Source: a virus (lineage: Duplodnaviria > Caudoviricetes). Taken from it: a stretch of 45,866 bases of DNA. The DNA lies in the IMG/VR virus record IMGVR_UViG_3300021082_000048, positions 1 to 45,866 of that record. The stretch is one strand, 5' to 3'. Shown here piece after piece: positions 173 through 45,300 of the stretch. Positions within the stretch are counted from its first letter, which is position 1. Every line of letters starts with the position of its first letter. Both the position numbers and the translations under genes were made by a program. The notes below the pieces were generated by a model. It searched no databases and had not been told where the DNA came from. It saw nothing but the letters and a program-made list of their open reading frames with translations.

Positions 173-190
173 TGATTCAATGTTGAATCA
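173..190. promoter_or_regulatory. Palindromic site, copy 1 (TGATTCA-ATGT-TGAATCA)
   Basis: Exact match to the recurring motif; at a gene junction overlapping a stop codon. Confidence 0.85.
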
Positions 191-721
191 CTTCAACAAC
201 AACGCGAGTAACGCTCCAATGACTGCACCTGGTAGCGCCATGACTACCTTTTTACCAAAGCTAGGATGCGCTCGTTCTTCTGCCAACTCCCAGTCCACAA
301 TCAGTTGTTTAGTTATCCTTTGGTTCTGTGATATGATGCTATCCAGCTTTACGTCTGCTTTCGCCATTTTGCTCGTGGTATCTGATACGACAGTATCACG
401 ATTGATGAGTCCGGCCAGACGTTCCTGTACCAGTGAATCGACTGCTGCTCGTTGACGATAAGCGTTCTCCCGAGCAACGCTAGCAGCCAAGCTTTTCCTG
501 GTAGCGGCCAGTTGGGCACTAGCACTCGCCCTTCGTAGTTCGGATCGAGCCAGCTCTGCATTTGTTTTCATTAGCTCCATTTGCAGAATAAACATAGCAC
601 TATCCGCACTAAGTTGCATCGTCAATCTAACTTGCATCACCTTCGCAGAATGCCACCCATACGAAACCACAACAAGTAATATCCACGGCACGATGCGAGC
701 AAGTTTATAGACAATCCCCAC
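188..721 (-). CDS. Membrane-anchored coiled-coil protein, possibly spanin-like
   Basis: N-terminal TM (IVPWILLVVVSYGW), Ala-rich helical middle, C-terminal hydrophobic segment (LPGAVIGALLALLL). Confidence 0.5.
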   Translation of the reverse strand: MGIVYKLARIVPWILLVVVSYGWHSAKVMQVRLTMQLSADSAMFILQMELMKTNAELARSELRRASASAQLAATRKSLAASVARENAYRQRAAVDSLVQERLAGLINRDTVVSDTTSKMAKADVKLDSIISQNQRITKQLIVDWELAEERAHPSFGKKVVMALPGAVIGALLALLLK

Positions 722-1389: not shown

Positions 1390-2780
1390 GTCGGCACCAC
1401 TCCCACTGGAATCCACTGGGGAATACAGTCGTCAGTGACTTCTACATCCACTGGCTCAGGCGTGCATGTGAAATCTGTATCAAAGCACGGACCAAAGATT
1501 AGGATCACCTCAACCGTCTGAGGCGAGTTATCTGCGTTCGACGACTCAACATCAAAGCTACCATGCCATGTTCCCTCAGGCACATTCTCAGTATTGCCGA
1601 TAACGCTGATCAACGTACCAGTCAGAAGCACTGTGAACCAATCATAGCCTGGCTCGATGTACGTTAGATTAGTGAGGGCCAAGTCTGCAAATGATCCCTG
1701 ACCAATGTTCAGCACATTCTGTTCAACTGCCGGCAATGCAGTAGCACGTGCGTGTGCATAGATAGTCATAGGTGATGTTACAGAGATACGTGGTATCGCT
1801 GTGATCGTCACCTGCACTGTTACTGTCTGCGGCGAGTTATCGGCCGTTGGATCAGTAATGTTGAACTGTGCTGTATATACACCGGGAGTCATGCCAGTTG
1901 TATCAATGCTCAACTGACATATCCACGGATTCTCGTCATCTGTAAATGAAGGATTCAGCCAATCTTCAGTCACAGTATCAAAGTCAATACCTGACAGCGA
2001 TCCTTCACCAGTATTGTAAACCTCAAGATTGTGTAGAATCGGTCCAGGTCCTTGTGGACCTGACAGCGTTACTGGAGAATCGACACTAATGTGTGGTGGA
2101 TCATCTTCCCACACTTCAAGATTCTGGACCCTTGTACCACTGTTCTCGTAGTGCAATCCCACACTGCTGTGATCAAAGTCCAAACCATTCCAAGTAGGTG
2201 TCAACACACCACCTGGTGAGGTTGTAAGGATCACCTGTCGTGTGCCACCAGCGAACGGTTCGATCCACAGCGTGTATGTACCACTCCCACCTGCCCCAAC
2301 CAGTGTGCATCCTACCCTGATCCCCCACGAGGGACCGATACCAAAGTCTGTATAACGATGCCCTACATCCACCGTGCCACCACCAGCACCTGCATCTAGC
2401 ACTGGTGTGACGTACACGTGTTCATCATTCGTGTCAACTTCAAACTGCAACTCGAGCCAACGATCACCTAGTACACCCGAGGCGTTGTCGAGTCCCCACT
2501 GAATACCCATCCTGTACGGCTGCGAATCCCAGTAGTACAGGTCCACCCAACTTTGAAAGTTGTCGAACACTCCTGTATCAATCTTCAACAGCGACACGTT
2601 GCGAGGCGTACCTGAATTGAACTTTGCACCATTGCTCAGAATGATAACGAAATCACTGAACGATGACGCTTGTATCCACCCACTCATGAAGCCATTCAAA
2701 GGAGCAGGTGTATGTGCTGTCAGGTTTGTACCTGGCGCATTGTCCTTGTCAAAGATATCCTGCGCAACTATGTTCGACAT
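1386..2780 (-). CDS. Virion protein with beta-rich N-terminal domain and two BACON/Ig-like repeats
   Basis: Two ~100-aa repeats (NTGEGSL..W..G.Y...ADNSPQTVTV and NIGQGSF..W..GTW...ADNSPQTVEV). Confidence 0.65.
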   Translation of the reverse strand: MSNIVAQDIFDKDNAPGTNLTAHTPAPLNGFMSGWIQASSFSDFVIILSNGAKFNSGTPRNVSLLKIDTGVFDNFQSWVDLYYWDSQPYRMGIQWGLDNASGVLGDRWLELQFEVDTNDEHVYVTPVLDAGAGGGTVDVGHRYTDFGIGPSWGIRVGCTLVGAGGSGTYTLWIEPFAGGTRQVILTTSPGGVLTPTWNGLDFDHSSVGLHYENSGTRVQNLEVWEDDPPHISVDSPVTLSGPQGPGPILHNLEVYNTGEGSLSGIDFDTVTEDWLNPSFTDDENPWICQLSIDTTGMTPGVYTAQFNITDPTADNSPQTVTVQVTITAIPRISVTSPMTIYAHARATALPAVEQNVLNIGQGSFADLALTNLTYIEPGYDWFTVLLTGTLISVIGNTENVPEGTWHGSFDVESSNADNSPQTVEVILIFGPCFDTDFTCTPEPVDVEVTDDCIPQWIPVGVVPT

Positions 2781-3116
2781 TTACAGATCCAAAATCGCGT
2801 ACACTTCAACGTCACGCTCAGACGCTTCAGTACCTGCCGACGAAATCGCCAGCGACTCAAACCCTGAGCATTCAATGAACTGCACAGTTGAAGCAGTCAG
2901 AGTCACTGCTGCACCAGCAACTCGTAGTGGAGTCATAGCCGCTGCAAGTGTGTCATCCTTTGGCCCAACCTTTACTGAAACTACACCAGTATAGGCTGGA
3001 TTGTGGAATGTCAGTCCCTTCATCATCACCAGCTCTCTCGCCGCCAGCACATTACTGACCGGCGTAGCTGCTGCAGCCAAAGACAGCCGGCCCAGATACG
3101 TCTTATGTAGTCCCAT
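2781..3116 (-). CDS. Hypothetical virion protein
   Basis: Packed ORF in the structural operon, probable start MGLHKTY; beta-strand-rich. Confidence 0.6.
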   Translation of the reverse strand: MGLHKTYLGRLSLAAAATPVSNVLAARELVMMKGLTFHNPAYTGVVSVKVGPKDDTLAAAMTPLRVAGAAVTLTASTVQFIECSGFESLAISSAGTEASERDVEVYAILDL

Positions 3117-3384
3117 CGAGCACAATCTCCACAGTAGTGGGTGACCCTAGCGTGTGGGTCTTGCTGACTCTGTATCGCTCCATTCGCTTGAACGGCAAGG
3201 GATACAGGCCAGGCTGGTCATAACTAATGGAATCCGAAAGGTCCCCGATAGTCATGTCAAACCTGACCTGTTCACCCTCAAGCAGATGTGTGATCTGCAC
3301 TGCCTGTTCATTACCCTTAGCCCGAGCCCACGGACCCTCGGAAGCGAACTTCATGGCGACGAGTGCCAATCGCTTTTGTTGCAC
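3103..3384 (-). CDS. Hypothetical protein
   Basis: GTG at 3384 after AAGGA RBS, just past the upstream stop; fills the operon gap. Confidence 0.55.
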   Translation of the reverse strand: MQQKRLALVAMKFASEGPWARAKGNEQAVQITHLLEGEQVRFDMTIGDLSDSISYDQPGLYPLPFKRMERYRVSKTHTLGSPTTVEIVLDGTT

Positions 3385-3400
3385 GGTAATGTTCCTTACC

Positions 3401-4051
3401 TCATGGTGAAAGCTCCGGGGTATCACTGATGTACCACACCTCGTAGTCATCAGTACCCCCTGGAGTACCTGCTGGAGAATACGTGCCACGGGGATCAGCA
3501 GTGGACGATGTGCTCGATACTACCACCGTACCCGTTGTAACGAGCGTACCATTCACTGTTTCCGCAAGCACGCCCGCAGGGGAGACGTTCGCCTGAAGAC
3601 CCAACACCTTGCCCGTACCAGCGACAATGGTATTGCCTGCAGCCGTCGCAGCAATCGTCTCAGTGATCGACGTAACCCGCTTGAACGTCTTAGCACCCGT
3701 GAACACCTTGCTGGTTGTACCTGCCGTAACCGACCACGCTTCCGTGATCCGCAGGCCAGCCATATCGTAACCCGTAATCGTCCCACTCATCGCTACAACA
3801 GCCGACGCATGGGTAACTGTAATCACAACGTTACGTGCATAGTCGGCACTCTGGGCTACTGCAAGCGAACCACCCAGTGTCATTTCCGTCGTGCCGGCTG
3901 CGCTCTGCCCTACATGTGACAGCGACCATCCATTAGCGACTGGCGCTGCAACATTTGTAAAGATGTCGTGGATGATAGCCGACTGGCTAATCCGACGACC
4001 CCGATGATTCTGAATCCCACGACTAGTGGAATACGTGGCTGGCAGTGGCAT
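3401..4051 (-). CDS. Probable capsid decoration/structural protein
   Basis: Thr/Ala/Gly-rich 216 aa directly after the major capsid gene; TADPRGTYSP motif. Confidence 0.6.
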   Translation of the reverse strand: MPLPATYSTSRGIQNHRGRRISQSAIIHDIFTNVAAPVANGWSLSHVGQSAAGTTEMTLGGSLAVAQSADYARNVVITVTHASAVVAMSGTITGYDMAGLRITEAWSVTAGTTSKVFTGAKTFKRVTSITETIAATAAGNTIVAGTGKVLGLQANVSPAGVLAETVNGTLVTTGTVVVSSTSSTADPRGTYSPAGTPGGTDDYEVWYISDTPELSP

Positions 4052-4054
4052 GGT

Positions 4055-4951
4055 TTACGCTCCCTGCGAACCGTACACTCCGCGCCAGTCACCCCAGCCG
4101 CTGCCATTCCGGCGAGTGAGCTTGAACAGTGCATCACCCGTGTGGAAGTCATCGCTGTTGGTGAAGGTAGCTGCCCGACGATCCCAGTAGTTGATATCAT
4201 GCTGGTCGCACAGGATGTACCACGCATCCGCGTCCGTCATGTAGTGTGACAGATGAGGAGTGAGGCCTTCCTGAGCGACTTGGTTGATATCGTTCATGTT
4301 GCCGCCCGGCAGGAACTGCGACTTCAGCACCTGATTCACGATCCAGTGATCGTTGATGCTGTAAATCACCTTCCGGGGAATGAACACTGCCGGAATACCA
4401 CTTTCATCGTTCAGCTGATGGAAGTGTTCGAGTGCTGCCTGCAGTGGAATCAGATCGAAGTCTGCATCCAGTGCCGGACGATTACGCTGGGTGGCGCCAC
4501 GGATAGTAACGTGATCCCCCAGCAGGGCCTCGCCTGCAACAAACCCCGGGAAGGCGGTGTTGAAGGCGTTGTTGTACGGAGCATGAGCAACAATCTCCTG
4601 GTTGTTCCTTGCAGAACGACCAAGCGCCTTGCTCATCCTTCCACCCATGATCCCGTACAGATCATCTTCCATCATTTCCTGCGTGATCCTGAACCCAAGC
4701 GCGTACGTCGTCCAGGTGTACCGCTTGACGGTACCCTGCACCGCGTCCTGATAGTTAACCGACGCGCCTTCCGGCTTGGTCTGCAGAGTTCCGAACCCTG
4801 CGATCGGGAAGTCTTCCTCATACGCCCGCTTCGATGAATTGAAGTTGGTGATGAGCTGACCCTCCATCTTCCGTTCCTTGTACGTCTCAAAAACGATCTT
4901 CCGATATCCCGGCGCAAGGAGGTTACTGAACGCGCCTCTTACCATAGTCAT
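4055..4951 (-). CDS. Major capsid protein (HK97 fold, Mu gpT-like family)
   Basis: GFGTLQTKPEG..Y, RYTWTTYALGFRITQEMMEDDLY and C-terminal GWGDWRGVYGSQGA are characteristic; strong codon bias. Confidence 0.9.
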   Translation of the reverse strand: MTMVRGAFSNLLAPGYRKIVFETYKERKMEGQLITNFNSSKRAYEEDFPIAGFGTLQTKPEGASVNYQDAVQGTVKRYTWTTYALGFRITQEMMEDDLYGIMGGRMSKALGRSARNNQEIVAHAPYNNAFNTAFPGFVAGEALLGDHVTIRGATQRNRPALDADFDLIPLQAALEHFHQLNDESGIPAVFIPRKVIYSINDHWIVNQVLKSQFLPGGNMNDINQVAQEGLTPHLSHYMTDADAWYILCDQHDINYWDRRAATFTNSDDFHTGDALFKLTRRNGSGWGDWRGVYGSQGA

Positions 4952-4963
4952 TGTAGGCGGTCC

Positions 4964-5452
4964 TTACGCTGTGGCAACAGTGAGATCGGCGAACTGAAGA
5001 ACATTCTGGTGTACCACGGCATAGAAAATACCGTTTGCCTCATCCACATCCACAACCTTGAAACGGCTCGCAGTTGTGGTCTTGCTCACGTCAAGCTGCC
5101 ACTGACCACCAGTTGCCCTGGTGATGCCGTAGCTGTTACCAACGTGAGTTGCCCGCACCGGCGTAGTCGTTGACGAGAATGCAATGCGCACGCTGGCACC
5201 CGTAAGGATGCGCAGTGGCACAAGACCGTCTGGCGTCAACACTCGACCAGCTTCAGTCGAGATTTCGGAGATGCCCCCGATCAGAGTCGGGTTGGTCCCG
5301 CAGCGCTTCGCCTCACCATTGTCAGAGGTATCTGCGTACCAGAAGTCCCCTGGAATGCAAGGCTCATTCGTAGCCTGTCCCGGCACGAACTGAGCGTTGT
5401 GAGTACCTGCCTCGTAGCCTTGGCATACGTAGGCGGGGAACAGAGATGACAC
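4964..5452 (-). CDS. Probable capsid cement/decoration protein
   Basis: 162 aa, beta-rich, immediately upstream of the capsid gene. Confidence 0.55.
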   Translation of the reverse strand: MSSLFPAYVCQGYEAGTHNAQFVPGQATNEPCIPGDFWYADTSDNGEAKRCGTNPTLIGGISEISTEAGRVLTPDGLVPLRILTGASVRIAFSSTTTPVRATHVGNSYGITRATGGQWQLDVSKTTTASRFKVVDVDEANGIFYAVVHQNVLQFADLTVATA

Positions 5453-5456
5453 TGTG

Positions 5457-5972
5457 TTACTCCTTGATCAAAAGTCGATCCGCACCAATCGAGATCCCAT
5501 GTTTGTCGCGGAGGACCTTGGCCACCTGATCGGCCATGTTCTCCATTTCCCGGTTATGAGACGAAAGCCGGTTTGCTGTTTCACGTTCGATTTCACGGAC
5601 ACGATGTTCGTACTCCTCTTTTGGCAGACGATACAGTGCCAAATTCCCTACCTTACGACCACCCTCATCATTTGGTACACGTTCATAACCATCAGCCTGC
5701 CGTGTGATCGCCTTCTCTTGGTTGTTCTCGTTGATCCACCGCAGACGAAAGTCCTTGTTCTTCTGCTTCGTTGCTTCGCTCACCTGCATCAGTCGCTGCT
5801 TCGGACCGAGCGGCATAATCCCTGACCGACCAGTCGTCCGCTCAACTCTATCGAGTCGTGCAAGCTCCTGCTTGATCTGTTCCTGTGCCTCAGTCTTGCT
5901 GACCTGTGCATCAATCCCAGCTTGAATCTCCTTCTCCTCGGCCTTCTTGGCCAACACCTCTTCGACTGACAT
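5457..5972 (-). CDS. Conserved head-module hypothetical protein
   Basis: FRLRWIN...GYERV...LALYRLPKE resembles a family commonly found between scaffold and this capsid type. Confidence 0.6.
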   Translation of the reverse strand: MSVEEVLAKKAEEKEIQAGIDAQVSKTEAQEQIKQELARLDRVERTTGRSGIMPLGPKQRLMQVSEATKQKNKDFRLRWINENNQEKAITRQADGYERVPNDEGGRKVGNLALYRLPKEEYEHRVREIERETANRLSSHNREMENMADQVAKVLRDKHGISIGADRLLIKE

Positions 5973-6763
5973 TAGCTCACCTTGCTCCAGTTGATGTATT
6001 CCGCAGGGGTCATCCCGAGCTTATCCGCAATCTCGAGCTGTGTGGCATCAAGCTGACCGTTCGTCGTAGCCTGCTGCCGTGGTGCCTGTGTGTTCCTCAT
6101 CGTAATACCCGACTGGCCCTCAGCTGCCTCCTGCCGAGTTTCACGCGTAGCCTGACTCCTGTACTCCACCAACTTATCAAAGTTCCGGCCACGCACAAGG
6201 CTCACCAGATCGTCCCACGCCTGCCTCGAAGTCATTGCTTGCCGTCCGCCCGGAATCGACGCCACCAACTGGTCAATGTCTTTCCCAAGGATTGCAAACT
6301 CGTCTTTATACTTGTCACGAGCGTAGTCTTCGGCTGAGTTGACATTATTGCTCATTAGCGGCCGCAGACGTTCCTCGTACTGAGCCGCCACCCTTCGTGT
6401 GGTTTGAGTGCTAATGTACTCCATCGCCGCTACAGGATCGTTGCTCATCATTTCAGCCAGCTGTTCACGAGTCAGCTCGGGCTCAGGTTCAGGAGCCTTC
6501 TGCTGTTGTGGCTGAAACTGGTTGCTCCGAAGGGCCAACTCAGCTTGCTGCTGAGCCGACACCCTGGCTTCCTCACTAATCCGTACAGCTTCCTTCAACC
6601 GTGTCGCATACTCCACAACCTCCTGCGCTGACTTTCCACGCAGTTCCTCAGGCATACCTTCCGCATCGAGCTTGATCGTCTTCAAGTCAATGGGCTGTGC
6701 ATTTGCTTCCATGCTGGAAAAGTCATCCAGCGTCACGCTTGTCGCGCCATCCTGATTCAACAT
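5972..6763 (-). CDS. Capsid scaffolding protein (probable)
   Basis: Helical, Q/E-rich; C-terminal LDATQLEIADKLGMTPAEY; between portal and capsid. Confidence 0.7.
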   Translation of the reverse strand: MLNQDGATSVTLDDFSSMEANAQPIDLKTIKLDAEGMPEELRGKSAQEVVEYATRLKEAVRISEEARVSAQQQAELALRSNQFQPQQQKAPEPEPELTREQLAEMMSNDPVAAMEYISTQTTRRVAAQYEERLRPLMSNNVNSAEDYARDKYKDEFAILGKDIDQLVASIPGGRQAMTSRQAWDDLVSLVRGRNFDKLVEYRSQATRETRQEAAEGQSGITMRNTQAPRQQATTNGQLDATQLEIADKLGMTPAEYINWSKVS

Positions 6764-6770
6764 TGAATCA
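6753..6770. promoter_or_regulatory. Palindromic site, copy 2 (TGATTCA-ACAT-TGAATCA)
   Basis: Spans the upstream stop codon and the scaffold ATG. Confidence 0.85.
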
Positions 6771-7013
6771 CTCCACTTCTGACTTCAGTTGTTTGATCGT
6801 GTCAGTGATCAGGTTGATTACTGACTTATAAGCGGCCACCTTACCCTGGTGCCGCGCCAACTGCAGCTGGTCCACCTCCACTTCCAGGAGCCGCTGGCAT
6901 TGGGCCAGCAGGTCTTTGCATCGCCCCTCCAAGTAGCTGTAGCCCGGGTGCTGGCGCAAGTCCAAGAGGAGGCTCTCCAATTCCAACGCTTCCTCCTTGC
7001 TGAGCTGGGCCAT
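6768..7013 (-). CDS. Small helical post-portal protein overlapping the portal 3' end
   Basis: GGAGG upstream of ATG 7013; HPGY...HQGKVAAY pattern typical of small post-portal genes; stop abuts the scaffold start. Confidence 0.65.
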   Translation of the reverse strand: MAQLSKEEALELESLLLDLRQHPGYSYLEGRCKDLLAQCQRLLEVEVDQLQLARHQGKVAAYKSVINLITDTIKQLKSEVE

Positions 7014-15270: not shown

Positions 15271-15444
15271 TTAAAGTTTGTTCAACTCAGTCAACAGCCC
15301 AAATGTCCTCAACACGTACAGCACCACAAGCAACAGTACCACGATGTAGATCACCTTCTTGATCGTCTCGTCCATCGGAATCAGCTGAATCAAATACAGT
15401 GCGACTCCGACCACAATCAGCATAATGATCAGTGAGACTAACAT
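15271..15444 (-). CDS. Small two-TM membrane protein (Thivi_2564-like; holin candidate)
   Basis: Not in ORF track; own translation MLVSLIIMLIVVGVALYLIQLIPMDETIKKVIYIVVLLLVVLYVLRTFGLLTELNKL; AGGAGG RBS. Confidence 0.75.
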   Translation of the reverse strand: MLVSLIIMLIVVGVALYLIQLIPMDETIKKVIYIVVLLLVVLYVLRTFGLLTELNKL

Positions 15445-15453
15445 GCAACCTCC

Positions 15454-15471
15454 TGATTCAAGTCTGAATCG
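15454..15471. promoter_or_regulatory. Palindromic site, copy 3 (TGATTCA-AGTC-TGAATCG)
   Basis: Fills the gap between a stop codon and the next RBS. Confidence 0.85.
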
Positions 15472-15474
15472 CTA

Positions 15475-18928: not shown

Positions 18929-18957
18929 AAGGTAACACATATATTGGCCGTTCGCAA
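18929..18957 (-). promoter_or_regulatory. Putative sigma70-type promoter for the late arm
   Basis: TTGCGA-17 bp (ending ATGTGT)-TACCTT; same spacer end as the early promoters. Confidence 0.55.
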
Positions 18958-18983
18958 GTCAGTGATGGGAATTGTTACATTAG

Positions 18984-19001
18984 TGATTCAAGGTTGAATC
19001 G
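18984..19001. promoter_or_regulatory. Palindromic site, copy 4 (TGATTCA-AGGT-TGAATCG)
   Basis: Between the divergent late and early promoters. Confidence 0.85.
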
Positions 19002-19098
19002 CTAAGAAAGTTTTTGAAGTGTGCGAGTTGATGAGAGTTAGCTTTCGATTTTGGGCCATCTGATTGCGGGTGCCCCACCGGTCCCATGTGCCCCAGAT

Positions 19099-19127
19099 TT
19101 GACATGGCACATGAAATGTGTTATGTT
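19099..19127 (+). promoter_or_regulatory. Sigma70-type promoter P1
   Basis: TTGACA-17 bp (ending ATGTGT)-TATGTT. Confidence 0.75.
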
Positions 19128-19165: not shown

Positions 19166-19184
19166 GGTGTGTGGACATGGCGGG
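19166..19184. repeat. Inverted repeat, left arm (pairs with 19658-19676)
   Basis: GGTGTGTGGACATGGCGGG, 18/19 complementary to CCCGCCAAGTCCACACACC. Confidence 0.85.
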
Positions 19185-19231
19185 ATGTGGATTCTGAACA
19201 ACACATCCAACTCGAAACAACGGAGATTACC

Positions 19232-19723: not shown

Positions 19724-19752
19724 ATCTATCCCCTCCTACTATATTACCTTAG

Positions 19753-19887
19753 CTCGACCACTAGTGTAGTGTCCTCTTGGCCTCTAGTGAAGTGTTCACT
19801 TGGCCCACTAGTGAGATGCCCTTGGCCCAGTTGGATTGGCTAGTCTTGATTACTAGTGCTATGCAAGGCTAGTCTTGGGCACTAGTG
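19753..19887 (+). repeat. Iteron-like direct repeats, approx. CTYGRNNWCTAGTG
   Basis: Units start at 19753, 19776, 19799, 19821 (partial), 19845, 19874; seven CTAG in ~130 bp. Confidence 0.75.
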
Positions 19888-19964
19888 AGAGGCAAGTTGA
19901 CATTAGCAAGGTGGGGATGCTATACCATTGGTCCCAAACCAAGAAGAGAGTTACCATTTTCTGC

Positions 19965-20143: not shown

Positions 20144-20244
20144 GTAATGGGCATTGGACTCACCCATTACGGAGCCACATCATGTCAGTATTATCATCGC
20201 CATCAGTATACATGCAGCAGCTTCAAACATGCTCAGTCACCGAT

Positions 20245-20775
20245 ATGCCCAGACTGATATGGACACTCAAGAAACTATCCGAATCATCTCTATACACTGG
20301 ATACAATAAGTATGGCAACAACCCAAGGACACAGAAGGGCTTTCGTCTCTGTGGTAATGTCACTGGTGAACTAGCTAACTATCTAGATACATTGGCATAT
20401 CTGAATGTCAGTGCAGATGATATGCAGAAAGTGCTTGAGTTCACAATCGTTGCCTTGCCCAAGATCACCTTCAGTATGGAAACACTGGTCCAAGCTGAGA
20501 TGGCAGTTGGTCGAATCAAGCTGATACATGATCGCTACATAAAGAAGCCAGACGCATCAGTCTTTACAGCTGTGGCGGCTGAGGCGATACAGAATGGGGT
20601 TGTGCCTAAGCCAGAGGGTATTGATCCACAATATGCTGAAGCACTTGCGGCATTTAAGGCCAATTACGCAGCTAAACAGGAGCTTAAGCGGCCATATCTT
20701 AGTGATGAAGAGAAGGATAAAATACTGAATGCAGTTGAGGGTGTTGATCTATCTGATCCAGATGACAGAATGTAA
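20245..20775 (+). CDS. Hypothetical protein
   Basis: Long ORF downstream of P2; start uncertain (MPRLIW). Confidence 0.7.
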   Translation: MPRLIWTLKKLSESSLYTGYNKYGNNPRTQKGFRLCGNVTGELANYLDTLAYLNVSADDMQKVLEFTIVALPKITFSMETLVQAEMAVGRIKLIHDRYIKKPDASVFTAVAAEAIQNGVVPKPEGIDPQYAEALAAFKANYAAKQELKRPYLSDEEKDKILNAVEGVDLSDPDDRM

Positions 20776-20776
20776 G

Positions 20777-20794
20777 CGATTCAATGTTGAATCA
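20777..20794. promoter_or_regulatory. Palindromic site, copy 5 (CGATTCA-ATGT-TGAATCA)
   Basis: Directly after a stop codon, 28 bp upstream of the P3 -35. Confidence 0.85.
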
Positions 20795-20822
20795 GTTGCA
20801 TAGCATATTCGCAAGTCCACAT

Positions 20823-20851
20823 TTGCATTCTTGACCATCTTGTGTTATATT
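20823..20851 (+). promoter_or_regulatory. Sigma70-type promoter P3
   Basis: TTGCAT-17 bp (TGTGT end)-TATATT. Confidence 0.7.
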
Positions 20852-24561: not shown

Positions 24562-24590
24562 TTGACAAGATTCACAAGATGTGTTATATT
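24562..24590 (+). promoter_or_regulatory. Sigma70-type promoter P4
   Basis: TTGACA-17 bp (CAAGATGTGT end)-TATATT. Confidence 0.85.
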
Positions 24591-24617
24591 GTAATATGGC
24601 AAATTGTTGGATTCCAC

Positions 24618-24635
24618 TGATTCAATCCTGAATCA
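24618..24635. promoter_or_regulatory. Palindromic site, copy 6 (TGATTCA-ATCC-TGAATCA)
   Basis: In the 5' UTR just downstream of P4; flanks extend the symmetry (TTCCA...TGGAA). Confidence 0.85.
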
Positions 24636-24671
24636 CTGGAAGTACGTCACTTAAAACTACGGAGAAGTAAC

Positions 24672-27831: not shown

Positions 27832-28011
27832 ATGCAAGTAGCATACGTGCGCCCTGTATGGGTAGAGAAGGATGGACTAGTGGATATGCCACTAGATGAT
27901 TGTTCAACAGAGTTCATCAAGCTCGTGGACAAGATCAACGGCCGTTTGCTTACTGATTCAGAATTGAATCACTACATGAAGGAGTTAGAACAATGCCCAA
28001 GTACACCGTAG
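27832..28011 (+). CDS. Small hypothetical protein
   Basis: GGAG RBS, MQVAYVRP start. Confidence 0.65.
   Translation: MQVAYVRPVWVEKDGLVDMPLDDCSTEFIKLVDKINGRLLTDSELNHYMKELEQCPSTP
27954..27971. promoter_or_regulatory. Palindromic site, copy 7 (TGATTCA-GAAT-TGAATCA)
   Basis: Inside a CDS (encodes DSELNH), just upstream of the next RBS. Confidence 0.8.
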
Positions 28012-28233: not shown

Positions 28234-28262
28234 TTGACAACTCGGCCAAGATGTGTTATATT
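28234..28262 (+). promoter_or_regulatory. Sigma70-type promoter P5
   Basis: TTGACA-17 bp (CAAGATGTGT end)-TATATT, followed by a 5' hairpin CATCCC-GAAT-GGGATG. Confidence 0.85.
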
Positions 28263-28317
28263 GTGGGACCATCCCGAATGGGATGCCACTGTCAAACCTA
28301 AAAGAAAGGTTGTCCGC

Positions 28318-28746
28318 ATGTCTCGTACCGTCCAAGCCCCAACAGGCGCACGCTTCGATGACGAAGAGGTTCGCACTGCCAAGGGCACCCAGTCACTGGG
28401 ACTCGTGCCGATCCTGGTGTGGGAAGATCACGAAGCTATGGCAGCCCACTACGGTGCACAGGGTCTGCTCGACATGGCTGATGGCACGTCCCTCCGAGTT
28501 TCTTTCCAGTCCATCGCTCGCCGATTCAAGGCGGCAGAAAAGTCCGATGACGAGATTGCCAACGCGCAGATTGCCTATCGTCCCGGCAAGCGCGCCGCAG
28601 GCGTTTCGACACCCGAGTCTCGTGCTGCCAGGTCTGCACGTGCGGCGGTCGAGAAGACTGGCAACAGCGAGGCGATCACTGCACTGCTCGACAAGATTTC
28701 TCGTGGCGAAATCAGCGCAGAAGATCTGGCGCAGCTGACTAGCTAA
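28318..28746 (+). CDS. Hypothetical protein, paralog of 19232-19648
   Basis: GAAAGG RBS; DMADGTSLRVSFQSIAR aligns with EMANGTSGRVRDQEVAR. Confidence 0.85.
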   Translation: MSRTVQAPTGARFDDEEVRTAKGTQSLGLVPILVWEDHEAMAAHYGAQGLLDMADGTSLRVSFQSIARRFKAAEKSDDEIANAQIAYRPGKRAAGVSTPESRAARSARAAVEKTGNSEAITALLDKISRGEISAEDLAQLTS

Positions 28747-29451: not shown

Positions 29452-29717
29452 TGGCTGGTGATGATGGGTACTTGTATCCAGAGAGCTATGCAGCGTTGGC
29501 TAATTCAAGTTTGAATCGCTCATGGTGGCTAGGCAGTGTGCACATGCAGGCTAAGTACGAATCAATTCACGGCGCGGCTAACATGCCAGAGCCACAGCGC
29601 TCACAGCGTAATGCGATCCTTGAGATTGCTTCCAAGCTGTTCGATGCAGCCAGCAAAAGGGAAGCAGCTCAGGCGATTCAAGAATGGAAGGGGTTCTTTA
29701 ATGCCAGCCAGCGATAG
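29451..29717 (+). CDS. Hypothetical protein
   Basis: AGGAG RBS, MAGDDGY start. Confidence 0.65.
   Translation: MAGDDGYLYPESYAALANSSLNRSWWLGSVHMQAKYESIHGAANMPEPQRSQRNAILEIASKLFDAASKREAAQAIQEWKGFFNASQR
29501..29518. promoter_or_regulatory. Palindromic site, variant copy 8 (TAATTCA-AGTT-TGAATCG)
   Basis: One mismatch to consensus; inside a CDS. Confidence 0.6.
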
Positions 29718-33933: not shown

Positions 33934-33975
33934 GGACGGGTAGCGATTCAGCCTTGAATCACTATCCGTCCTTTG
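33934..33975 (+). terminator. Long hairpin/terminator enclosing a palindromic site
   Basis: GGACGGGTAG...CTATCCGTCC then TTTG. Confidence 0.55.
33944..33961. promoter_or_regulatory. Palindromic site, copy 9 (CGATTCA-GCCT-TGAATCA)
   Basis: 37 bp upstream of the ParB-MTase start. Confidence 0.85.
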
Positions 33976-33998: not shown

Positions 33999-35246
33999 GT
34001 GCACATTATCCAAGTAGAAGTCTCTGCTATCGTAGTCCCTGATGACAGGTTCAGGGGAATCAACAAGAAGGTTGAGGATATTGCCACAAGCATCCTCAAG
34101 TATGGGCAGCTACAGCCTATCATCATTACGCCTGAAGGTGTCCTAGTTGATGGTGGTCACCGTCTTGCCGCCGCCAAGCTCAACTGTTCCAGCCACATCG
34201 CGGCAGTCTACAGCAACGACGTTGATCCGTTGTACCTCAGGGAAGTGGAACTAGAAGCCAACATCATGCGGCTTGAGATGACTTGGCAGGAGAAAGCACA
34301 TGCACTCAAGACATTGCACGAACTCAAAGTTGCACGCAATCCTAACGCTTCCCAAGCGCAGACTGCTGCAGCTGCTGGTGAAGGATCGCAGCGGGCGATC
34401 AGCCAGGCGATTAGCATTTCTCGTATGGTTGAACTCTTCCCAGAAATCGGAGAGGCGAAGTCCCTCAACCAAGCACTGAGCCTAGCAAAGGCCAAGGCTA
34501 AGGGGGTCATGCGAGTAAAGGAAGTTCGAGACGATCCGGAAGTCTATGCTGCCATCGAGGACAAGCTGATCCTCGGCGACTCAGTCGAAGTCATCAAGAC
34601 GATCCCAGATCACACGTTCAACGCTATCATCACCGACCCTCCATTCGGAATCAACTACGATGACCGTAAGGCTGGAACCGTTGGAAGTATTACAGATTAC
34701 GAAGATGGTCCTGAGGCATATGAACGCCTCCTCACAATGGCGCCGGATTTGTACCGCACTATTAAACCGGACGGCTGGCTCATCTGGTTTCTCGGAGTGT
34801 CTTGGTACGAGCGGTGCAAGGCCGTCTTCCGTGATGCTGGATTTATTGTCGACGAGATACCCGTTATCTGGGACCGCAGTCAGGGTCGTTGTTTTACCAC
34901 TAGACCTGATCGGTATTTTGGCAGAGCGTATGACATTGCTCTTCATTGTATCAAGGGAGACCCGCAGATGGTACTGCGAAGTCGCCCCAATATCATTAGG
35001 GTCGAGCCCGTATCTAACGCCGATCGAGAGACTCTCGTTGAACGTCCAGTTGAGCTCTATGCTGAACTCATCCGACGGCTTACTGTTCCCGGCGAGACGG
35101 TCGCTGATTTCTTTGCTGGGTCAGGCAGCTGTCTGGCTGCGGCGGCAAGCACGGGCCGTAGGTACTTCGGAGTCGAAATGAATCCTGAGCGTCGTGCTTG
35201 GGCACTCAAGAAGATTCGTGCCCACACGCGGGATGATGCAGCATGA
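33999..35246 (+). CDS. ParB N-terminal + HTH + beta-class N6A/N4C DNA methyltransferase fusion
   Basis: GQLQPI, DGGHRLAA (GxxR), ANIMRLEM; HTH-like SQAQTAAAAGEGSQRAISQ; TDPPF precedes DFFAGSGS. Confidence 0.88.
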   Translation: MHIIQVEVSAIVVPDDRFRGINKKVEDIATSILKYGQLQPIIITPEGVLVDGGHRLAAAKLNCSSHIAAVYSNDVDPLYLREVELEANIMRLEMTWQEKAHALKTLHELKVARNPNASQAQTAAAAGEGSQRAISQAISISRMVELFPEIGEAKSLNQALSLAKAKAKGVMRVKEVRDDPEVYAAIEDKLILGDSVEVIKTIPDHTFNAIITDPPFGINYDDRKAGTVGSITDYEDGPEAYERLLTMAPDLYRTIKPDGWLIWFLGVSWYERCKAVFRDAGFIVDEIPVIWDRSQGRCFTTRPDRYFGRAYDIALHCIKGDPQMVLRSRPNIIRVEPVSNADRETLVERPVELYAELIRRLTVPGETVADFFAGSGSCLAAAASTGRRYFGVEMNPERRAWALKKIRAHTRDDAA

Positions 35247-35536: not shown

Positions 35537-35769
35537 CTGTGAATCCGCAAATAGATTTCAACGAGGGTTTCCTAAAGCACACGGAAACTCTAAAGCTGGC
35601 GTTCGCGAACTATCAGGACTTGATGGAGAAGCACGGGACGATGATCGCTGAATACAAGGCAGTGTGTCAACAGGTTGACTATGCACGAAAGCGCATCACT
35701 GATGCACAGACGAGTCTCAATGACTTCGTCGGAAAGGCAGCACGTGAAGCTAATACAAGAGGGACCTAA
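35533..35769 (+). CDS. Coiled-coil hypothetical protein
   Basis: ATGA overlap. Confidence 0.65.
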   Translation: MTVNPQIDFNEGFLKHTETLKLAFANYQDLMEKHGTMIAEYKAVCQQVDYARKRITDAQTSLNDFVGKAAREANTRGT

Positions 35770-38158: not shown

Positions 38159-39339
38159 CACGGCTAGTAAAGAACTGGTTGCAAGGATATCTAGCGTACA
38201 CTGCTGAATCCGAATCACCAGAGGGGTACCATCTATGGGTTGGAATAAGTTGTATCGCGGGAGCTATTCGTCGGAAAGCGTTTTTTCCGATGGGGTACTT
38301 CCTACTATATCCAAATATGTATACTGTCCTCGTGGGACCTCCTGGTCGATGCAAGAAGTCCACGGCTATGCGTGTTGGACGGCAGATGTTGGGTGGAGTG
38401 GAAGGCATTCACTTCACTACGGATTCTGTCACACGCGAGCGCTTGATAATGGACTTGGGCCAGACGTTTGTAGACGGCCATTCATCTATGACCGCATTCT
38501 CCAGCGAGTTTGCGTCATTGCTGACGTCATCAGGTATGGATATGGTCGTGTTCTTGACAGACATCTTCGATTCACCCGACGAGTGGACACATCGAACCAA
38601 GATTGGTGGGACGAATACTATCAAGGCGCCGTACCTGAACCTTATAGGCGCCACTACGCCGGACTGGATTGCGAAAGCTATGCCCTTGGATACGATTGGC
38701 ATTGGACTGACTTCTCGGATTGTCTTTGTTTACGAGGATACCCCACGTATCAAGGATCCATTCCCGGTCTTGTCGGAGGGCCAGAAGAAGCTGGGTCAGA
38801 TGTTGATACAGGATTTGTCGAAGATTGCTTTAATCGCGGGACAATACCGCTTGACTGGTGATGCAGAAGAATACTACACGATATGGTATCGTAAGCGAAT
38901 CGAGAACCCTAACCCTACGAATGACCCACGGTTGAATGGGTACTTCGAGCGCAAGCCTATGCACATGCTCAAGCTATGCATGATCCTTGCAGCTGCCGAG
39001 ACGGACAGTACAATAATCGAACTTGAGCATGTGCAAGAAGCGATGGCTCAGCTCGAACGTACCGAGCAGTCAATGCCAAAGGTCTTTGCCAATGTAGGTA
39101 AGAATCCTTTCGCTACGGATATTGAAGAGATCTATACTGCACTCGTACAGGTCCATCCTGACGGTATGATCTTTGGAGAGATACTCAACCGATTCAAGCA
39201 TAACCTGCAAGTCGAGGACCTGTCTGGTATCCTCAATGGGATGCAACAGATGGGACATGTAGTGCTGCGGGAGTCACACTATTACGCGAACTTAGCGTTT
39301 CTCCGCACAGCACTACAGAAGGAGGTTAGCGATTCATGA
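38155..39339 (+). CDS. P-loop helicase-like protein (DUF3987-like)
   Basis: PNMYTVLVGPPGRCKKST, SEF, NLIGATTP, GLTSR; coupled to polA by ATGA. Confidence 0.75.
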   Translation: MTRLVKNWLQGYLAYTAESESPEGYHLWVGISCIAGAIRRKAFFPMGYFLLYPNMYTVLVGPPGRCKKSTAMRVGRQMLGGVEGIHFTTDSVTRERLIMDLGQTFVDGHSSMTAFSSEFASLLTSSGMDMVVFLTDIFDSPDEWTHRTKIGGTNTIKAPYLNLIGATTPDWIAKAMPLDTIGIGLTSRIVFVYEDTPRIKDPFPVLSEGQKKLGQMLIQDLSKIALIAGQYRLTGDAEEYYTIWYRKRIENPNPTNDPRLNGYFERKPMHMLKLCMILAAAETDSTIIELEHVQEAMAQLERTEQSMPKVFANVGKNPFATDIEEIYTALVQVHPDGMIFGEILNRFKHNLQVEDLSGILNGMQQMGHVVLRESHYYANLAFLRTALQKEVSDS

Positions 39340-42300
39340 TTGAATCAGTCGGAGGACTCATACTGTCGTTTGCCGTTTGCTGCTGGGCAATGGCAGTCTT
39401 GGCTGACCTCGCAGCAAGGTTTGTTTGCTTTGCAAGTTCAATCATTGCTTCCTGTATCTCACGGATCAGGGACTCTTTCGTCTGACCCTGTGGCATCATC
39501 TTGGGATCGAGCTGACGGATATCTTGGATAGCCTTCCTCATATCCGTCAGATCGGCCCTCGACTTACGATACAGTTCTGCAACACCCAAGTCCTCAATGT
39601 GATCTACAGCGTACTTCCCTGCCTCAACACCCAGCTGCTGGTCAACAAGTTCCTTCACACCCTGTTCCACACGATCAGACTTGTTAGCCATGATATAGAA
39701 CTCATGGATCGACTGAGTCTGCACAGCTGGCCACTGTGGGAACGCCGAGCCAACAAATGGAATCTCCTCGTGCATCGGCATCTCCTGCGTCCGGCTATAC
39801 TTAAGCATATTACTGATGCCCTGCAGTGCAGCATACGTCAGTGTACCACCGAGGTTCCTAGCAATGTAATCAAGTCCCGCAGGTGAAAGGGCTCGCTGTA
39901 GCCCTTGGCTATCAACATCATCTGTCCACTTTCCCATAAGACTAGATACTTCTTGTGAAATACCAGTAGTGTTCTGGTTCCGCAAGAACTGAGGATCAAG
40001 GTTTCGGTCGGGAGTAATCTGTCCACCGAAGTTCAAGTCCTTGTTAGCCCACAGTGACAACGGTACACTCGCAACAAGTGGTGTAAGATTCAGCTGCACA
40101 TCATTGAGCATCGCTTCCTTCCAAGTATCGTAAGCAATAGGATCATTGTTACGCTTGTTATCAAGTACAGCTTCAATCGCAGTACCGAACAGCTCACCCT
40201 CAAACAAGGGCTTTGGAATCTTAATCAGACCATGATCTGGTCCACGCATCCACCAGAACTTACGCCCTGAAGGAGTACCACGAAGCTCCTTGATCTGTTC
40301 ATCATCCTCATATGCAAAGTACAGTAGCATACTGGGGATCATCACTCCAGCCACACCTCGGGCAAACCATTTCGCTGGAGCTTCCTTTGCTGCATCGAAC
40401 GTAGCTGACATACCTTGGATCGAAGGATTCAAGAACAGTGTCATCTTGTTCAACGCTTGTGCTACCGCCCAGTCACCACGATTGCTGAAGTTAGCACCGT
40501 ACTTCTTTGTGGAATACACAGCATCCAGAACACTACTACCACGACCGCGCTCAGATAGATAAGCCCCAACCCTAGCCGCATCGCTAATCGAGATGATGGC
40601 ATTGGCATACGCGTCCTTCACTCCTGTCCACGTAAGCGTCTTCGCGTCGTTGATTACCTCTCCAATCTTTGTTCTTGCCGGAGCAGTCTGCACCTGTCGG
40701 AGAAGAGATAGACCGTCTCTAGTAACCTGGAGTCCTTGGGACGCGATAGAATCTCCAACTCCGCCAGCAGTGATAAACTTACGGTACTCCGGAGATTTAG
40801 TAATGATATGGAAAGCTCCAGCAATTGAACCTCCCGCCGACCGCAGCAAGCTAATTCCAGGCGTACCACCGTAGGCTCCGTTCATGTAGTATTGCCATAC
40901 ATCACGGATAGACTGGTATGCTACAAACACAGGATTGGCTGTAATACCAATCTTGGCTACGTTAGTCAGGGCTTCAATGGGAGCAAGACCTGCCATCACG
41001 TATTGCATTTCCTGCGGTCGAAAAGACCGAAACATTCTCTCAAATGGTTCAGCAAGCCGGACAGCAACTGGTTCACCGTTCTCATAGTAACGTAGTATTC
41101 CATTCGTCACATTGAGGGATTCATCGGTAAGACCCATCAGCATGTTCTTGGCTTCGCTAGCACTTATCTCAGTTCCTGACGCTGCGAGGTCTGCCTTCAA
41201 TGCCTTGGCTTGGTCATCAAGACCAGCAATGTCAGGTGCCTTGCTCAACCGTTGACCAACAAACTGACGGGCTTCCTTTGGGAGCAGATCAATGTATTGC
41301 ACGAACACCTTCGCCATCTTGTTCAACTCAGCAGCACGCTGGATTCTACCTGTCATGTCGATGGCAGCCTCAAAGGGATTCTGGATATCTCTAGTAGAGC
41401 CCACCATCTTATGACTGGTCTGCGGAACTGCAGCACCCTTGATGTTCTTCTTTACATCTAGTTGTCCCGCCGACTGTCCTGGCTTATCGTTAAACAGTCT
41501 ACGGATCGCAACGTACATTTCGTCACTATTGAACTTCTGTCGGACTTCTGCGCTGATAAGCCCATCCCGCACTTGCAAATCAGCGAGGGCGCGAAAGTAC
41601 TTTGTGAGAGCTTCTCTGGCCTTATGCATCTTTGGAGTAGCTCTAGTAAACATCTCTCGTGCGGCGTCATAGTCAATACCCAATGTCTTTCCCCGCGTAG
41701 CACGGACCTCCAGCTCACGTGCAGCGGCAGCAAGATCACCAATCGTTCGAGTATCACCATCGTTCAAAGCTGCGATATGTTGCAGCGACGGGATTGGCTG
41801 ACCCTCATCATCCAAGAATGGACGAGGATTACCCAGCTCGTCGAAGTACGCTGGACCATCACCCTTCACCCATGCATCTGTCCGTCCCCGGTACAGACCA
41901 AAGAGTTCAGCCTGCTTACCAAGGTTCGACTGGAAGCTTACCTTCGCTCGGCCAATCGCAGCCGTGAGACGCTCTGCTGGAAGGCTTCTCCTCGCTATAC
42001 CCATCCAAGCGTTGTGGAGATAATGGCTAAGACCGATACGTTCAGTGAAGTTCTGATCCTCAATTGAACGAACCTTCTCACGCAGCTTACGCTGATAAGC
42101 AGGGGTACCATCAGTCTTAGCTTGCTGGAAACGCTTGTTCACATGTGAAGCACCAAGTGCCCCAGCAACGCCAATGTACAGTGCATGCTCAAGCCGCTGC
42201 TGATCGCTGTCAGCAGGCAACAGAAAACCTCCTGCGAACCCAGCCACAAAGCCAGTCACTGCAGGGTTCGTCTGTACGATCATCCCTCCAGCTCCACCAG

Positions 42301-45300
42301 GATTGTTCCTACGTGAAGCCTGTTCAGCAATCACATCATCCAGACGCTTAACCAATGGATGCGTACGACGTTCGATCTTACCAATCATCGAGGTCTCAAC
42401 TCGAAGAGCATCAGCTACCTTGTCGAGCGTAGCATCATTCATGCTCTTGACTGGAGCCTTCTTCACCGTGTTGTTGTCCAGCTTGGCTTCGACAGGTTCC
42501 TTTGCCTTGGCCTTAACTGACATAGTATTAATGCCAGTCTTTTCTCCTACCACCTCAACCGGAACATGCTCGTATGTAACATCAACAAGCTTCTCACGCT
42601 CAGGTGTAGTAAGTGTGTGATAATTGTCTGGCAGATCGCCAGCCTTGATTGCCTGACGCTCGGCGTCTGCGTTGTTGAGGGCACGATATTCGTTACCATT
42701 GGCCTTGATCTTGACGACCGCACGAGCGATAGATGGCCCATCGGGGACCACGATTGGGCCTTCCACAGGCTGCTTGGTGCCTTTCTTCTTAGCTGCAGCT
42801 GAAGCTCTAGCTGCTGCGAAGTCCTCAACAGTAAAGGCTTTCTCTGTTGGAGGCAGAGTACGACGGTGTTCCTTGACCTGTCGAAGGGCATCACCATAGG
42901 CTGCAAGTGTGATCTGCTTAGCATCAAGCGCGTCTTCAAGCTTGTCGAGCAGTCCATTCGTCTTGTCCAAATCATTAGAGGTCATGTCGCTAATCGACTT
43001 CTCAAGGACAAAGCCCTCGACAGTCTGGTTAACGGGACCAGCAGCCTTCTTCTGTCCACGAGGCTTCGTTGGCTTACTTGCAGCAGCCACATGATCCTTC
43101 GTCATCTGAGCAATCTCTTCCTCAGATGGCTTCAACGTCTTGATCTTCTCAAGAGTCAATGCACGATCAGCCTCAACAGTGTTCTTACCATGTGCAACTG
43201 AAATACCAGTCACGTACTTCTTCCACTTCTTAACCCCCGTGATCGGTTCGTCAGGGATCAGCTCACGTAGCCGCTTTGCGAATGCTTCAGCCTTACCCTT
43301 AGGCACGGCAACCGCAAACTCATCACCACCAACACGGAACCCACGGCTACCGTCTTGTACGATACCAAGCTCGTGTTCGATCTGACGGATGGCATCTCCC
43401 ACACGGGCAAAGAATGCATTCATACCTTCATGTGTACGAACTGCATTGCCAGCATGGAGAGACTTCATGTCAGCATAGACTACCTCAACTTCAGGATCAG
43501 CGTCGATAGACTTCTGAGCCTTTGCCCATGCATTAGCGTTACCAAGACCAGTCTGGGGATCAATCTCAGCACCCCGCTGAGCTTCCATTCGCTCGTTAAC
43601 AGTACGAGCAAGATGCTCAACTGCAACTTCAAGCTCTTCCTTGGACAGCTCCAGCTCGTCGTCGCTCATCTCCTCAACTGGCTTCTTCGTCTCAGCATCA
43701 GGCTTGATTTCCCCAACAACTTTACCCTCTGCACCAGTCGACACTTCTGGTTCTTCAGATGGTGTAATGTCAGGCTCATCTGGCTGCTTAGCTATCTGCT
43801 CATCAGCAAGTTCTGCTGTTGGCTTCTTAAGCTTCTCCATTACTGCATCTGCAATCTTAGCATTTGCTTCTTCTCGCGTAAGCAGTGCAGTCCCATCCTC
43901 CTGGGGCGCCGTGGGCGCAACAGCGTCCGGGGTGGTCGAGACCTGAGCGGCGTCGGCAGGGGCAGGCGGGGGAGTAGGTGTAGCCTCTCCCGCGGTGGCG
44001 TCCGTTGGTGCGGTGTCCAGACCGTAGCTGGTATGACCCTCAGCCAGATGCCCAATCTCACCCTCACCCATTATAAAGGTGCCATCAATCCCTTCAAACT
44101 TAACCTCGTAGAATCCCTCACCAGCGTGATTCTTCTTGAACTTCACGACAGTTCCACGAGTGTCCTTTGAGGGTGTAGCAGTTTCGATGACACCAGCTGT
44201 GCCTTCCTTTGTGGTAGTATGAGCACCACGTTGTAGGGCTCTATCAGGTGCACGGATGATCGTGCCAACGACAGGCTTCCCACTGAGTGGATGACCTTCT
44301 GGTACATCCTTCCATGTATTCTCAGCGGCAACAGCTGTAGTCGTGGCTTCGGGTGTAACTGTACCAACCTCTGGCTGATTCACGTTTGAATCAGGTACAG
44401 GCGCAGCTTCTGGTGGAGCAGCCTTCTTAGTCTCGATGGCAGCCTTAACCTTGGCGATCGCTTCACGGGTAGTTTGAGCAGTAGCCTCATCCTTCGCTTC
44501 AAGCACCGACCGTTCCAGTTGCTTAAGCACACGCTGAAGCTGATCCTTGCTCGCCTTCTGCATCCACTCAGGCTGATTAAGGACTCGATTCTCGTTGATT
44601 ACATTCTGCTGACCAACCTTAGTCAGGTCCTTGGTCCACGACTTACCGGGATTCGCAGCTTCCCACTTAGAGCGAATACCCTTCCTGGTCTCCTGCTCAG
44701 CCTTACGCTGGGCAATCATCGCAGACTCTTGTTCCTTCAGCTTGGCTGCTTGTGCTGCCCTTGCGGGATCAACTGAACCACCTTCACCAGCTGGCTTGGT
44801 GGGGTCAACGTCTGGTAGCTTCTTACCACCAAACCCAAACTTCGGGAACTTGACAGTGGACAATGCGGCCGCGAACGTGCTTGGTCCAACCACAGCAGCC
44901 AGTGCCTGCATCCGTTGAGTGTCGCTTTCGTACCTTGGATTCATGAACACGTCTGCGACCTGCACTACATCAACAGCCCCGGAGCCTACGAGGTTAGCGA
45001 TGATCTTCTGTGTTCTAGTCGCATTCGGGCCAAACCCTACACTGATCGCTTCGAGTGCCGCAGCCGCCCGTGGACTTGTGCGTGCTGCAAGTTGCAACGC
45101 CTTGAACCCTTGGTTGTTAGCAATCGCCCAAGGATTCGCTTCACCCATTACACCAGTTGCCAGTGTACCAGCGACGTTGCCTACCGTGCCTTCGATGCCC
45201 TGTGGATCAAGCCCAAGCTTCACTGTAGCCTGTGCCTCTTCGATTCTGCCACGCATCTTCTCAGCTACGTCGATACCCAGATTGGATGGTAGCGACAATG

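Follow-up and report, generated by a model that had tools for sequence, protein, structure and literature searches.

ParB and Noc are ParB-fold proteins with a helix-turn-helix (HTH) that recognise palindromic DNA sites; R173 of ParB bonds guanine 1 of TGTTTCAC-GTGAAACA (parS), while a glutamine of Noc reads adenine 1 of its site, NBS (PMC7383237). KorB of plasmid RK2, a sliding repressor of the ParB family, has operators (OB) lying 4 to >1,000 bp from promoters (PMC11790492). Fusions of ParB with an N6-N4 DNA methyltransferase (PF02195 + PF01555) are reported as frequent in phages, perhaps for anti-defence (PMC12704722). The 45,866-nucleotide virus record IMGVR_UViG_3300021082_000048 of IMG/VR (91% complete; the whole stretch is called the window below) encodes such a fusion, and it carries eleven copies of a 22-bp palindrome, which are putatively parS-like docking sites of the fusion protein.

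The system shares with ParB-parS and Noc-NBS the ParB fold and HTH, a 16-bp palindromic core in the same register and several sites per replicon, as well as G where the protein has arginine and A where it has glutamine, at base seven counted from the centre (PMC7383237). It differs from them in that no ParA is found among its 77 open reading frames (ORFs), the part missing from the window holding tail-region genes; in that the sites are evenly spread, with gaps of 1.5-8.7 kb, and not clustered at one centromere locus; in that the site has 3-bp conserved flanks and a free 4-bp centre; in that a methyltransferase takes the place of the C-terminal dimer domain; and in that the site sequence changes between close relatives. 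The proposed working is ParB-parS- or KorB-OB-like, but not that of ParABS, as there is neither a ParA nor a centromere cluster. With KorB the phage has in common a ParB-family protein and dispersed sites, some adjacent to promoters (predicted ones here) and some far from them (PMC11790492), whereas KorB contains no enzyme and works with KorA, and the phage protein is fused to a methyltransferase and has no conserved partner. The domain pair is the same as in the published phage fusions, but the available part of that paper gives no DNA site, HTH specificity or mechanism, and the text of its supplements has no match for N6N4 terms (PMC12704722); no published binding site for a ParB-N6N4 fusion was found in a literature search over the openings of abstracts, mostly of open-access journals. 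ParB-activated phage T-dioxygenases also couple a phage ParB to a DNA-modifying enzyme, although, in the part of the paper available, these ParB proteins have no DNA-binding domain, are separate from the enzyme and do not need the nucleotide pocket (PMC13229309).

The palindrome GATTCA-N4-TGAATC occurs in ten exact copies, starting at 174, 6754, 15455, 18985, 20778, 24619, 27955, 33945, 39331 and 44377, and in one copy with a single mismatch at 29502. The original prediction, made from the letters of the window, had listed the same eleven, its 18-mer beginning one base earlier; the full site is longer than first noted, being a 22-bp palindrome, (A)SYGATTCA-N4-TGAATCRS(T), with the 16-bp core within it. 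The eleven sites in window coordinates are as follows.

171..192, site 1, flanked by two tail-region genes
6751..6772, site 2, across the start of the gene in the scaffold position, behind the portal
15452..15473, site 3, intergenic between terminase and portal, beside the ribosome-binding site of ORF 15271-15444 (57 aa)
18982..19003, site 4, in the region where early and late genes diverge, with its centre 35.5 bp upstream of a predicted late promoter
20775..20796, site 5, directly behind ORF 20182-20775, with its centre 37.5 bp ahead of a predicted early promoter
24616..24637, site 6, some 29 bp past a predicted start of early transcription
27952..27973, site 7, in or behind a small early ORF
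29499..29520, site 8, which departs from the pattern by one mismatch
33942..33963, site 9, between the genes for SSB and the ParB-methyltransferase
39328..39349, site 10, where the convergent primase-like and 2152-aa genes overlap at their ends
44374..44395, site 11, within the 2152-aa LPD38-containing gene

No exact copy was present in 100 dinucleotide shuffles (mean 0.00, maximum 0, against 10 in the window), which bears out the rarity by chance claimed before, and with up to two mismatches there are 12 matches against a shuffled mean of 2.13. Matches occur at a spacer length of 4 only among lengths 0-14, again as claimed, and no second palindrome family was found in the spacer and family scans. 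In a weight matrix built from the ten exact copies, the 11 sites score 22.7-33.6 bits and the next best match 7.0, a gap that closes the site set at 11. Codon-preserving shuffles, from which the original prediction had looked for a possible refutation, do not match the counts, since synonymous-codon resampling (51 ORFs, 500 times) leaves a mean of 5.58 exact sites against 10 and never more than 8, with 5 of the remaining exact sites being intergenic and hence never altered. Neighbouring sites are separated by 1,547-8,701 bases, in line with the 1.5-8.7 kb first given. On the 50.5-kb circle formed by the window and its missing part, the spacing is more even than random (coefficient of variation 0.44, P=0.004; largest gap P=0.03), and evenness reaches P<0.05 in 14/18 other genomes, under a null of random placement that ignores gene structure and treats linear records as circles, and with a site finder that merged sites <300 bp apart in 15 of these 18. 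C faces A at the outer Y/R position in the three copies that had been pointed out (20778, 33945 and 39331), and the presumed transcribed strand has 20 non-Watson-Crick arm pairs, 18 of them true mismatches and 2 G-U, which argues for recognition of the site as double-stranded DNA by a symmetric protein and upholds the earlier preference for a dimeric DNA-binding protein over an RNA hairpin.

The inferred binder and its parts are encoded directly behind site 9.

33999..35246, + strand, fusion of ParB fold, HTH and beta-class N6-N4 DNA methyltransferase, 415 aa, putative binder of the palindromes
33999..34337, + strand, predicted ParB nucleotide-binding domain (about residues 1-113; Box II G52/R55, Box III E86/N88/R91)
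34353..34436, + strand, predicted HTH, model helices 119-126 and 131-146
34389-34391, + strand, Q131, the equivalent of ParB R173/Noc Q173
34551..35225, + strand, predicted methyltransferase domain, motif IV DPPF (213-216) ahead of motif I FxGxG (372-376)

No extension precedes the ParB fold at the N-terminus of the protein, and its gene belongs to the replication module, with SSB on one side and DNA polymerase on the other. The ParB-fold nucleotide-binding domain contains Box II and Box III, and the matches of an eight-member profile to ParB of Myxococcus, Spo0J and Noc extend through the HTH (E 7e-15 to 2e-13); the match to NCBIfam TIGR00180 (E 7e-9) is below the family cut-off. The structure model (mean pLDDT 73, pTM 0.51) contains helices at 119-126 and 131-146, and in the relative G033 the helix can be aligned, without a gap, to the GKxRxxV helix of Spo0J and ParB. 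The C-terminal domain matches CcrM, PvuII, RsrI and MboIIA in Foldseek (E 7e-15 to 4e-11), the matches including both N4-cytosine and N6-adenine enzymes, and it shows the motif order that defines the beta class, (D/N/S)PP(Y/F/W) ahead of FxGxG (PMC7544214), with DPPF at 213-216 and FxGxG at 372-376. Among 120 homologues, G52, R55, DPPF and G374/G376 are invariant (120/120), and E86, N88, R91 and F372 are kept in 118-119. Sequence and model show the fusion to unite a ParB nucleotide pocket, an HTH and methyltransferase motifs, all of them conserved. Residues 346-350, just ahead of motif I, read LVERP in the close clade and HPxEKP in distant members.

Relatives were collected by terminase, capsid and fusion-protein scans, the clade having 47-81% identity in these markers; a polymerase-based scan found none, and a second fusion-based scan no new close relative. 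The window motif is absent as a family from all searched relatives, viral contigs scanned for the 22-bp pattern yielded 10 stretches with one site apiece, and the exact 16-mer occurs in 0/45 fusion-bearing records, so that the exact letters are private to this phage. As the proposed search for a co-varying palindrome revealed, each relative has a palindrome of its own that keeps the 9-4-9 geometry and is set off by a sharp drop in score.

AGGTATTCA, motif of G023 (11 sites)
AGGTGTACA, motif of G001, G002 and G004
ACTTGTACA, motif of G018 and G032
CTTGTCC, motif of G033 and G034
AGTTGTCCA, motif of G035 and G037-G039
AGTTATTCA, motif of G031
AGCGTTGCA, motif of G042
AGTGGTACA, motif of G041
AGCGTTGAA, motif of G003
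AGATATCCA, motif of G040

Four further motif families are found in G060, G062, G063 and G064. Among the close relatives of at least 40 kb in which the fusion gene is included, 11/11 possess a 9-4-9 family of their own, with 6-13 sites, and a clade-wide matrix finds a site in 19/22 further small fragments. Across 198 half-sites, position 2 is G/C in all, while T stands at position 6 in 197 and C at position 8 in 196. The places of the sites recur as well: behind TerL, behind the gene that follows the capsid, close to the nozzle, within the large LPD gene, at the junction of SSB and the fusion gene, and upstream of the TerS gene in 13/13 genomes that include it; a site lies up to about 480 bp upstream of the fusion gene at 16/19 close loci, the exceptions being G060, G064 and L256. 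In-gene copies encode unrelated peptides in different phages, which indicates that the DNA word is conserved and not the protein. The original prediction had instead argued for selection from the stop-free frame of the in-gene copies, which is circular, as any in-gene copy needs an open frame. Among the peptides it named, DSNVNQ (44377) is indeed in frame in the 2152-aa gene, whereas DSELNH and NSSLNR fall in two small ORFs that are possibly not true genes and have no homologue in seven relatives.

Counted from the dyad centre, base 1 of parS and NBS is the seventh, in the same register as in the phage sites, and residue and base were compared in 18 phages for which protein and motif are both available. 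At this base, A is paired with residue Q in 6 phages (the window, G023, G060, G062, G064 and G067), G with R in 9 and with H in 1, and T with P or K in 2. The R173/Q173 column ranks first among 2,618 scored columns of 29 gene families, and in 200 bootstrap trees of the fusion without its HTH neither residue class forms one group. In two more supported sister pairs, G037/G063 and G041/G042, residue and base switch together, and the match as a whole rests on only about 4-5 independent switches. This agreement with the ParB/Noc code, together with the co-occurrence of gene and palindromes, makes it very probable that the fusion protein encoded at 33999-35246 binds the palindromes.

The co-occurrence extends to distant fusion-bearing phages (23-34% identity), of which 24 were examined as whole genomes (16 of 62 distant loci chosen for length, 4 from a capsid search and 4 named records). 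A genome-wide palindrome family scoring at least 45, mostly with a TCA-N5-TGA core, is present in 18/24, and one such family, TGTTTCA-N3-TGAAAC, is parS plus one base. Named carriers are Desulfofustis phage LS06-2018-MD01, with 9 sites, and Vibrio phage VS-ABTNL-3, with 4 weaker ones. Twelve distant phages with a G-T-x-x core have R or K at the R173/Q173 position, a pattern giving weaker support, with G079 as an exception and registers shifted by half a base. None of 10 control stretches without the fusion, from nine records, has a genome-wide family; three have palindrome families clustered within 3-6 kb (W07 41777-45569, G054 2089-7580 and G105 105307-107950), which are probably ordinary operators. 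At the level of 15-21 kb loci, a test that misses many genomes positive when examined whole, the site finder flags 16/47 with the fusion against 3/26 with the methyltransferase alone, two of these three being near copies. The cut-offs of 45 for whole genomes and 35 for loci were chosen after the data had been seen. MW202554.1, an intended control, encodes a different ParB-fold methyltransferase without an alignable HTH, has no site family and is counted in neither group.

The sites, their geometry, their even spacing and their conserved positions are matters of observation, and a reasonably likely account of them is that the palindromes are parS-like docking sites at which the fusion would load as a nucleotide-gated clamp, slide and methylate its own genome in cis. 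Two HTHs of a fusion dimer would bind a site, nucleotide binding would close the dimer, and the clamp would then leave the site and slide outward. Beta-class methyltransferases act as dimers and need to do so (PMC7544214), and hence the methyltransferase domain could close the ring, where its dimer would replace the C-terminal dimer of ParB; such closing and sliding is likely by analogy with ParB, Noc and KorB. Sites every 4-5 kb would let sliding cover the whole phage genome and no other DNA, and sites differing between relatives would keep the methylation private. That methylation in cis is the main purpose, probably against host restriction, is suggested with some reserve. Through a minority of its sites the protein would also affect promoters close by, that of the late operon among them, and transcription control and cis methylation are candidate roles compatible with each other.

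Several observations weigh against this account or its parts. A capsid column and several exonuclease columns separate the residue classes nearly as well as the HTH column, so the Q/A and R/G classes partly follow kinship. Of the 3 independent Q/A versus R/G pairs in the polymerase tree, 2 are supported, and although both of these are concordant they are too few for a sign test to reach significance; the residue-base match was noticed post hoc, and the motifs of 4 of the 18 phages (G061, G066, G067 and L255) rest on 1-2 sites. No clear family was found in 6/24 distant fusion phages (G044, G069, G084, G087, G101 and Microcystis phage Mel-JY34), nor any site in G012, a 23.8-kb fragment of the relative nearest by capsid (81%), which may or may not have the fusion gene; G012 (L053, L054) is a candidate for loss of the palindrome system. 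The evenness null is one without gene structure, and 29/157 sites lie within 120 bp of a predicted promoter. As for the enzyme, the window holds 0 ATCGAT against 15 expected, 0 CCATGG against 8 and 1 GGATCC against 10, and the avoidance of ATCGAT and CCATGG is strong across the clade, which argues against blanket protection by methylation; word counts gave only avoided words and no enriched candidate methylation target. As for the nucleotide gate, N6N4 fusions were among the 50 proteins chosen in a published study but are not named among its 11 nucleotide binders in the part available (PMC12704722), and a phage ParB is reported to activate its partner enzyme with no need of the nucleotide pocket (PMC13229309).

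The sites near promoters bear on the main alternative, itself rather unlikely, namely that the same protein mainly exerts KorB-like transcription control, loading, sliding and stalling at promoters, or contacting RNA polymerase from upstream positions that are fixed, to time early and late genes, with methylation secondary or unlinked. The predicted promoters beside window sites are the following.

18929..18957, - strand, predicted sigma-70-type late promoter upstream of the small-terminase candidate, by matrix match only
19099..19127, + strand, predicted early promoter that points away from the late one, at 106 bp from site 4
20823..20851, + strand, predicted early promoter beside site 5
24562..24590, + strand, predicted early promoter upstream of site 6

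In agreement with such a role, a site is centred 21.5-45.5 bp upstream of the -35 box in 20/73 predicted promoters, at distances clustering at 21.5-25.5, 34.5-38.5 and 41.5-45.5; 31 sites lie upstream and 4 downstream within 200 bp of predicted promoters, sites 4, 5 and 6 of the window adjoin predicted promoters, the late operon has a site ahead of it in all 13 genomes with TerS, and KorB has operators both close to promoters and >1,000 bp away from them (PMC11790492). However, 128/157 sites, and 8/11 in the window, are not near predicted promoters, sites are written inside large late genes, and the catalytic motifs are invariant; the upstream bias may just mirror where non-coding space lies, and no KorA-like partner is conserved, the two ORFs resembling ribbon-helix-helix (RHH) proteins not being conserved. 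The loading or genome-organising role in the original prediction agrees with the even spacing and with the distance of most sites from predicted promoters; 3/11, however, do adjoin such promoters. The five predicted + strand sigma-70-type early promoters of the window (19099, 20115, 20823, 24562 and 28234) have an extended AAGATGTGT-TATATT-like element in common, and promoters like them occur in relatives. A further reading, with the fusion binding and spreading for structural ends (partition, Noc-like membrane anchoring, or compaction for replication or packaging) and the methyltransferase serving mainly as a dimer, would suit the even site coverage, the presence of Noc among the best matches and the gene's place in the replication module, but is improbable, as there is no ParA or MinD family among the 77 ORFs and no N-terminal extension before the ParB fold, and the catalytic and S-adenosylmethionine-binding motifs are invariant in 120 homologues.

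Little probability attaches to a different binder, such as a stoperator-type phage repressor, the F21 family of HTH proteins seen in relatives, the small terminase or a transcription factor of the host. Mycobacteriophage repressors do bind many genome-wide sites, and stoperators resemble the palindromes in being numerous sites for one phage protein that vary between related phages, but they are asymmetric and bound by a monomeric immunity repressor as far as the available text describes them (PMC9283540), whereas the sites here are symmetric and no repressor or integrase family was found among the 77 ORFs; a stoperator system was rejected on these grounds. F21 has an HTH and is present in 15/29 genomes or fragments, but no member was detected in the complete genome of the window, the best match having E 0.57; the place of F21 (G001:3526-4086 and homologues) is similar to that taken in the window by the AT-rich ORF 20182-20775, which has no homologue. 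The TerS candidate combines an HTH with a site upstream, but TerS helices are alike across different motifs and unlike across the same motif. Of the four binders first proposed, the ParB-methyltransferase has thus held up, while the TerS helix does not track the motif and the two RHH-like ORFs have no tblastn match in the sequences of 24 relatives. Kinship could account for part of the ParB residue-base correlation; against a different binder stands the joint occurrence of fusion and palindromes in distant phages, with no such palindromes in the controls that are without the fusion. A host factor would not be expected to switch its motif between such close phages, and host LexA-type boxes were dropped as the motif differs between close relatives. 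GANTC, the CcrM target, lies in both arms of the window palindrome but not in the relatives' motifs, and this explanation was also discarded. RNA hairpins for processing or termination, for which stems of 6-8 bp with four-base loops, several at gene junctions, and a terminator-like scan passed by site 4 might speak, are scarcely credible, given the prevalence of true mismatches in imperfect arm pairs (18/20), the fit of both halves independently to one weight matrix and the freely varying loops.

The phage in which the putative clamp is encoded has a podovirus-like layout, with terminase, SU10-type portal and adaptor, capsid and the 2152-aa LPD38 protein on the minus strand, and small early genes, exonuclease, a Sak4-like protein, SSB, the ParB-methyltransferase, family A polymerase and a primase-like gene on the plus strand; scans of the 77 ORFs gave no match to ParA/MinD, integrase or repressor families. 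The nearest annotated phage has 33% terminase identity. The same phage is represented by L159 (100% over 14,951 bases), which lies on a 50,494-base contig joining both ends of the window. The 4.6 kb absent from the window but present in L159 contain no further site; this part (L159:14952-19590) carries tail-region genes, including those for a 537-aa protein and an acetyltransferase-like protein. A phage-sized contig with a 43%-identical capsid, L117, is in an Acidobacteriota metagenome bin, and is too distant for a host to be assigned. The family A DNA polymerase (35675-38158) has an N-terminal uracil-DNA-glycosylase-like domain (Pfam PF03167, E 3e-26). A paralogous gene pair, 19169-19648 and 28234-28746, lies directly behind early promoters, and its family, found in 19/25 genomes or fragments, has no Pfam or PHROG match. 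Between the first early genes, a CTAG/ACTAGT-rich stretch (19740-19900) is followed by an A-rich run (19990-20010), possibly an origin. Among relatives, AATT and TTAA are nearly absent from G037, and AATT from G063.

Taken at its widest, and tentatively, the ParB-methyltransferase may represent a widespread phage class of self-addressed epigenetic clamps, with private parS-like addresses every few kb at which a ParB-gated methyltransferase would load only on its own genome, to slide along it and methylate it in cis. Address and reading helix, diverging together, would shield the protection from use by the host chromosome and co-infecting kin. The analysis provides candidate DNA targets, a residue-base code and a testable mechanism for common phage fusions of otherwise unassigned function, and its natural series of protein-site pairs forms a set for studying how the specificity of the ParB family diversifies. 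If true, the mechanism would offer a natural design for directing a methyltransferase to a region and not to a sequence, and, if methylation is limited to address-bearing DNA, it would give a virus a new means of distinguishing its own genome from that of its host or of a rival.

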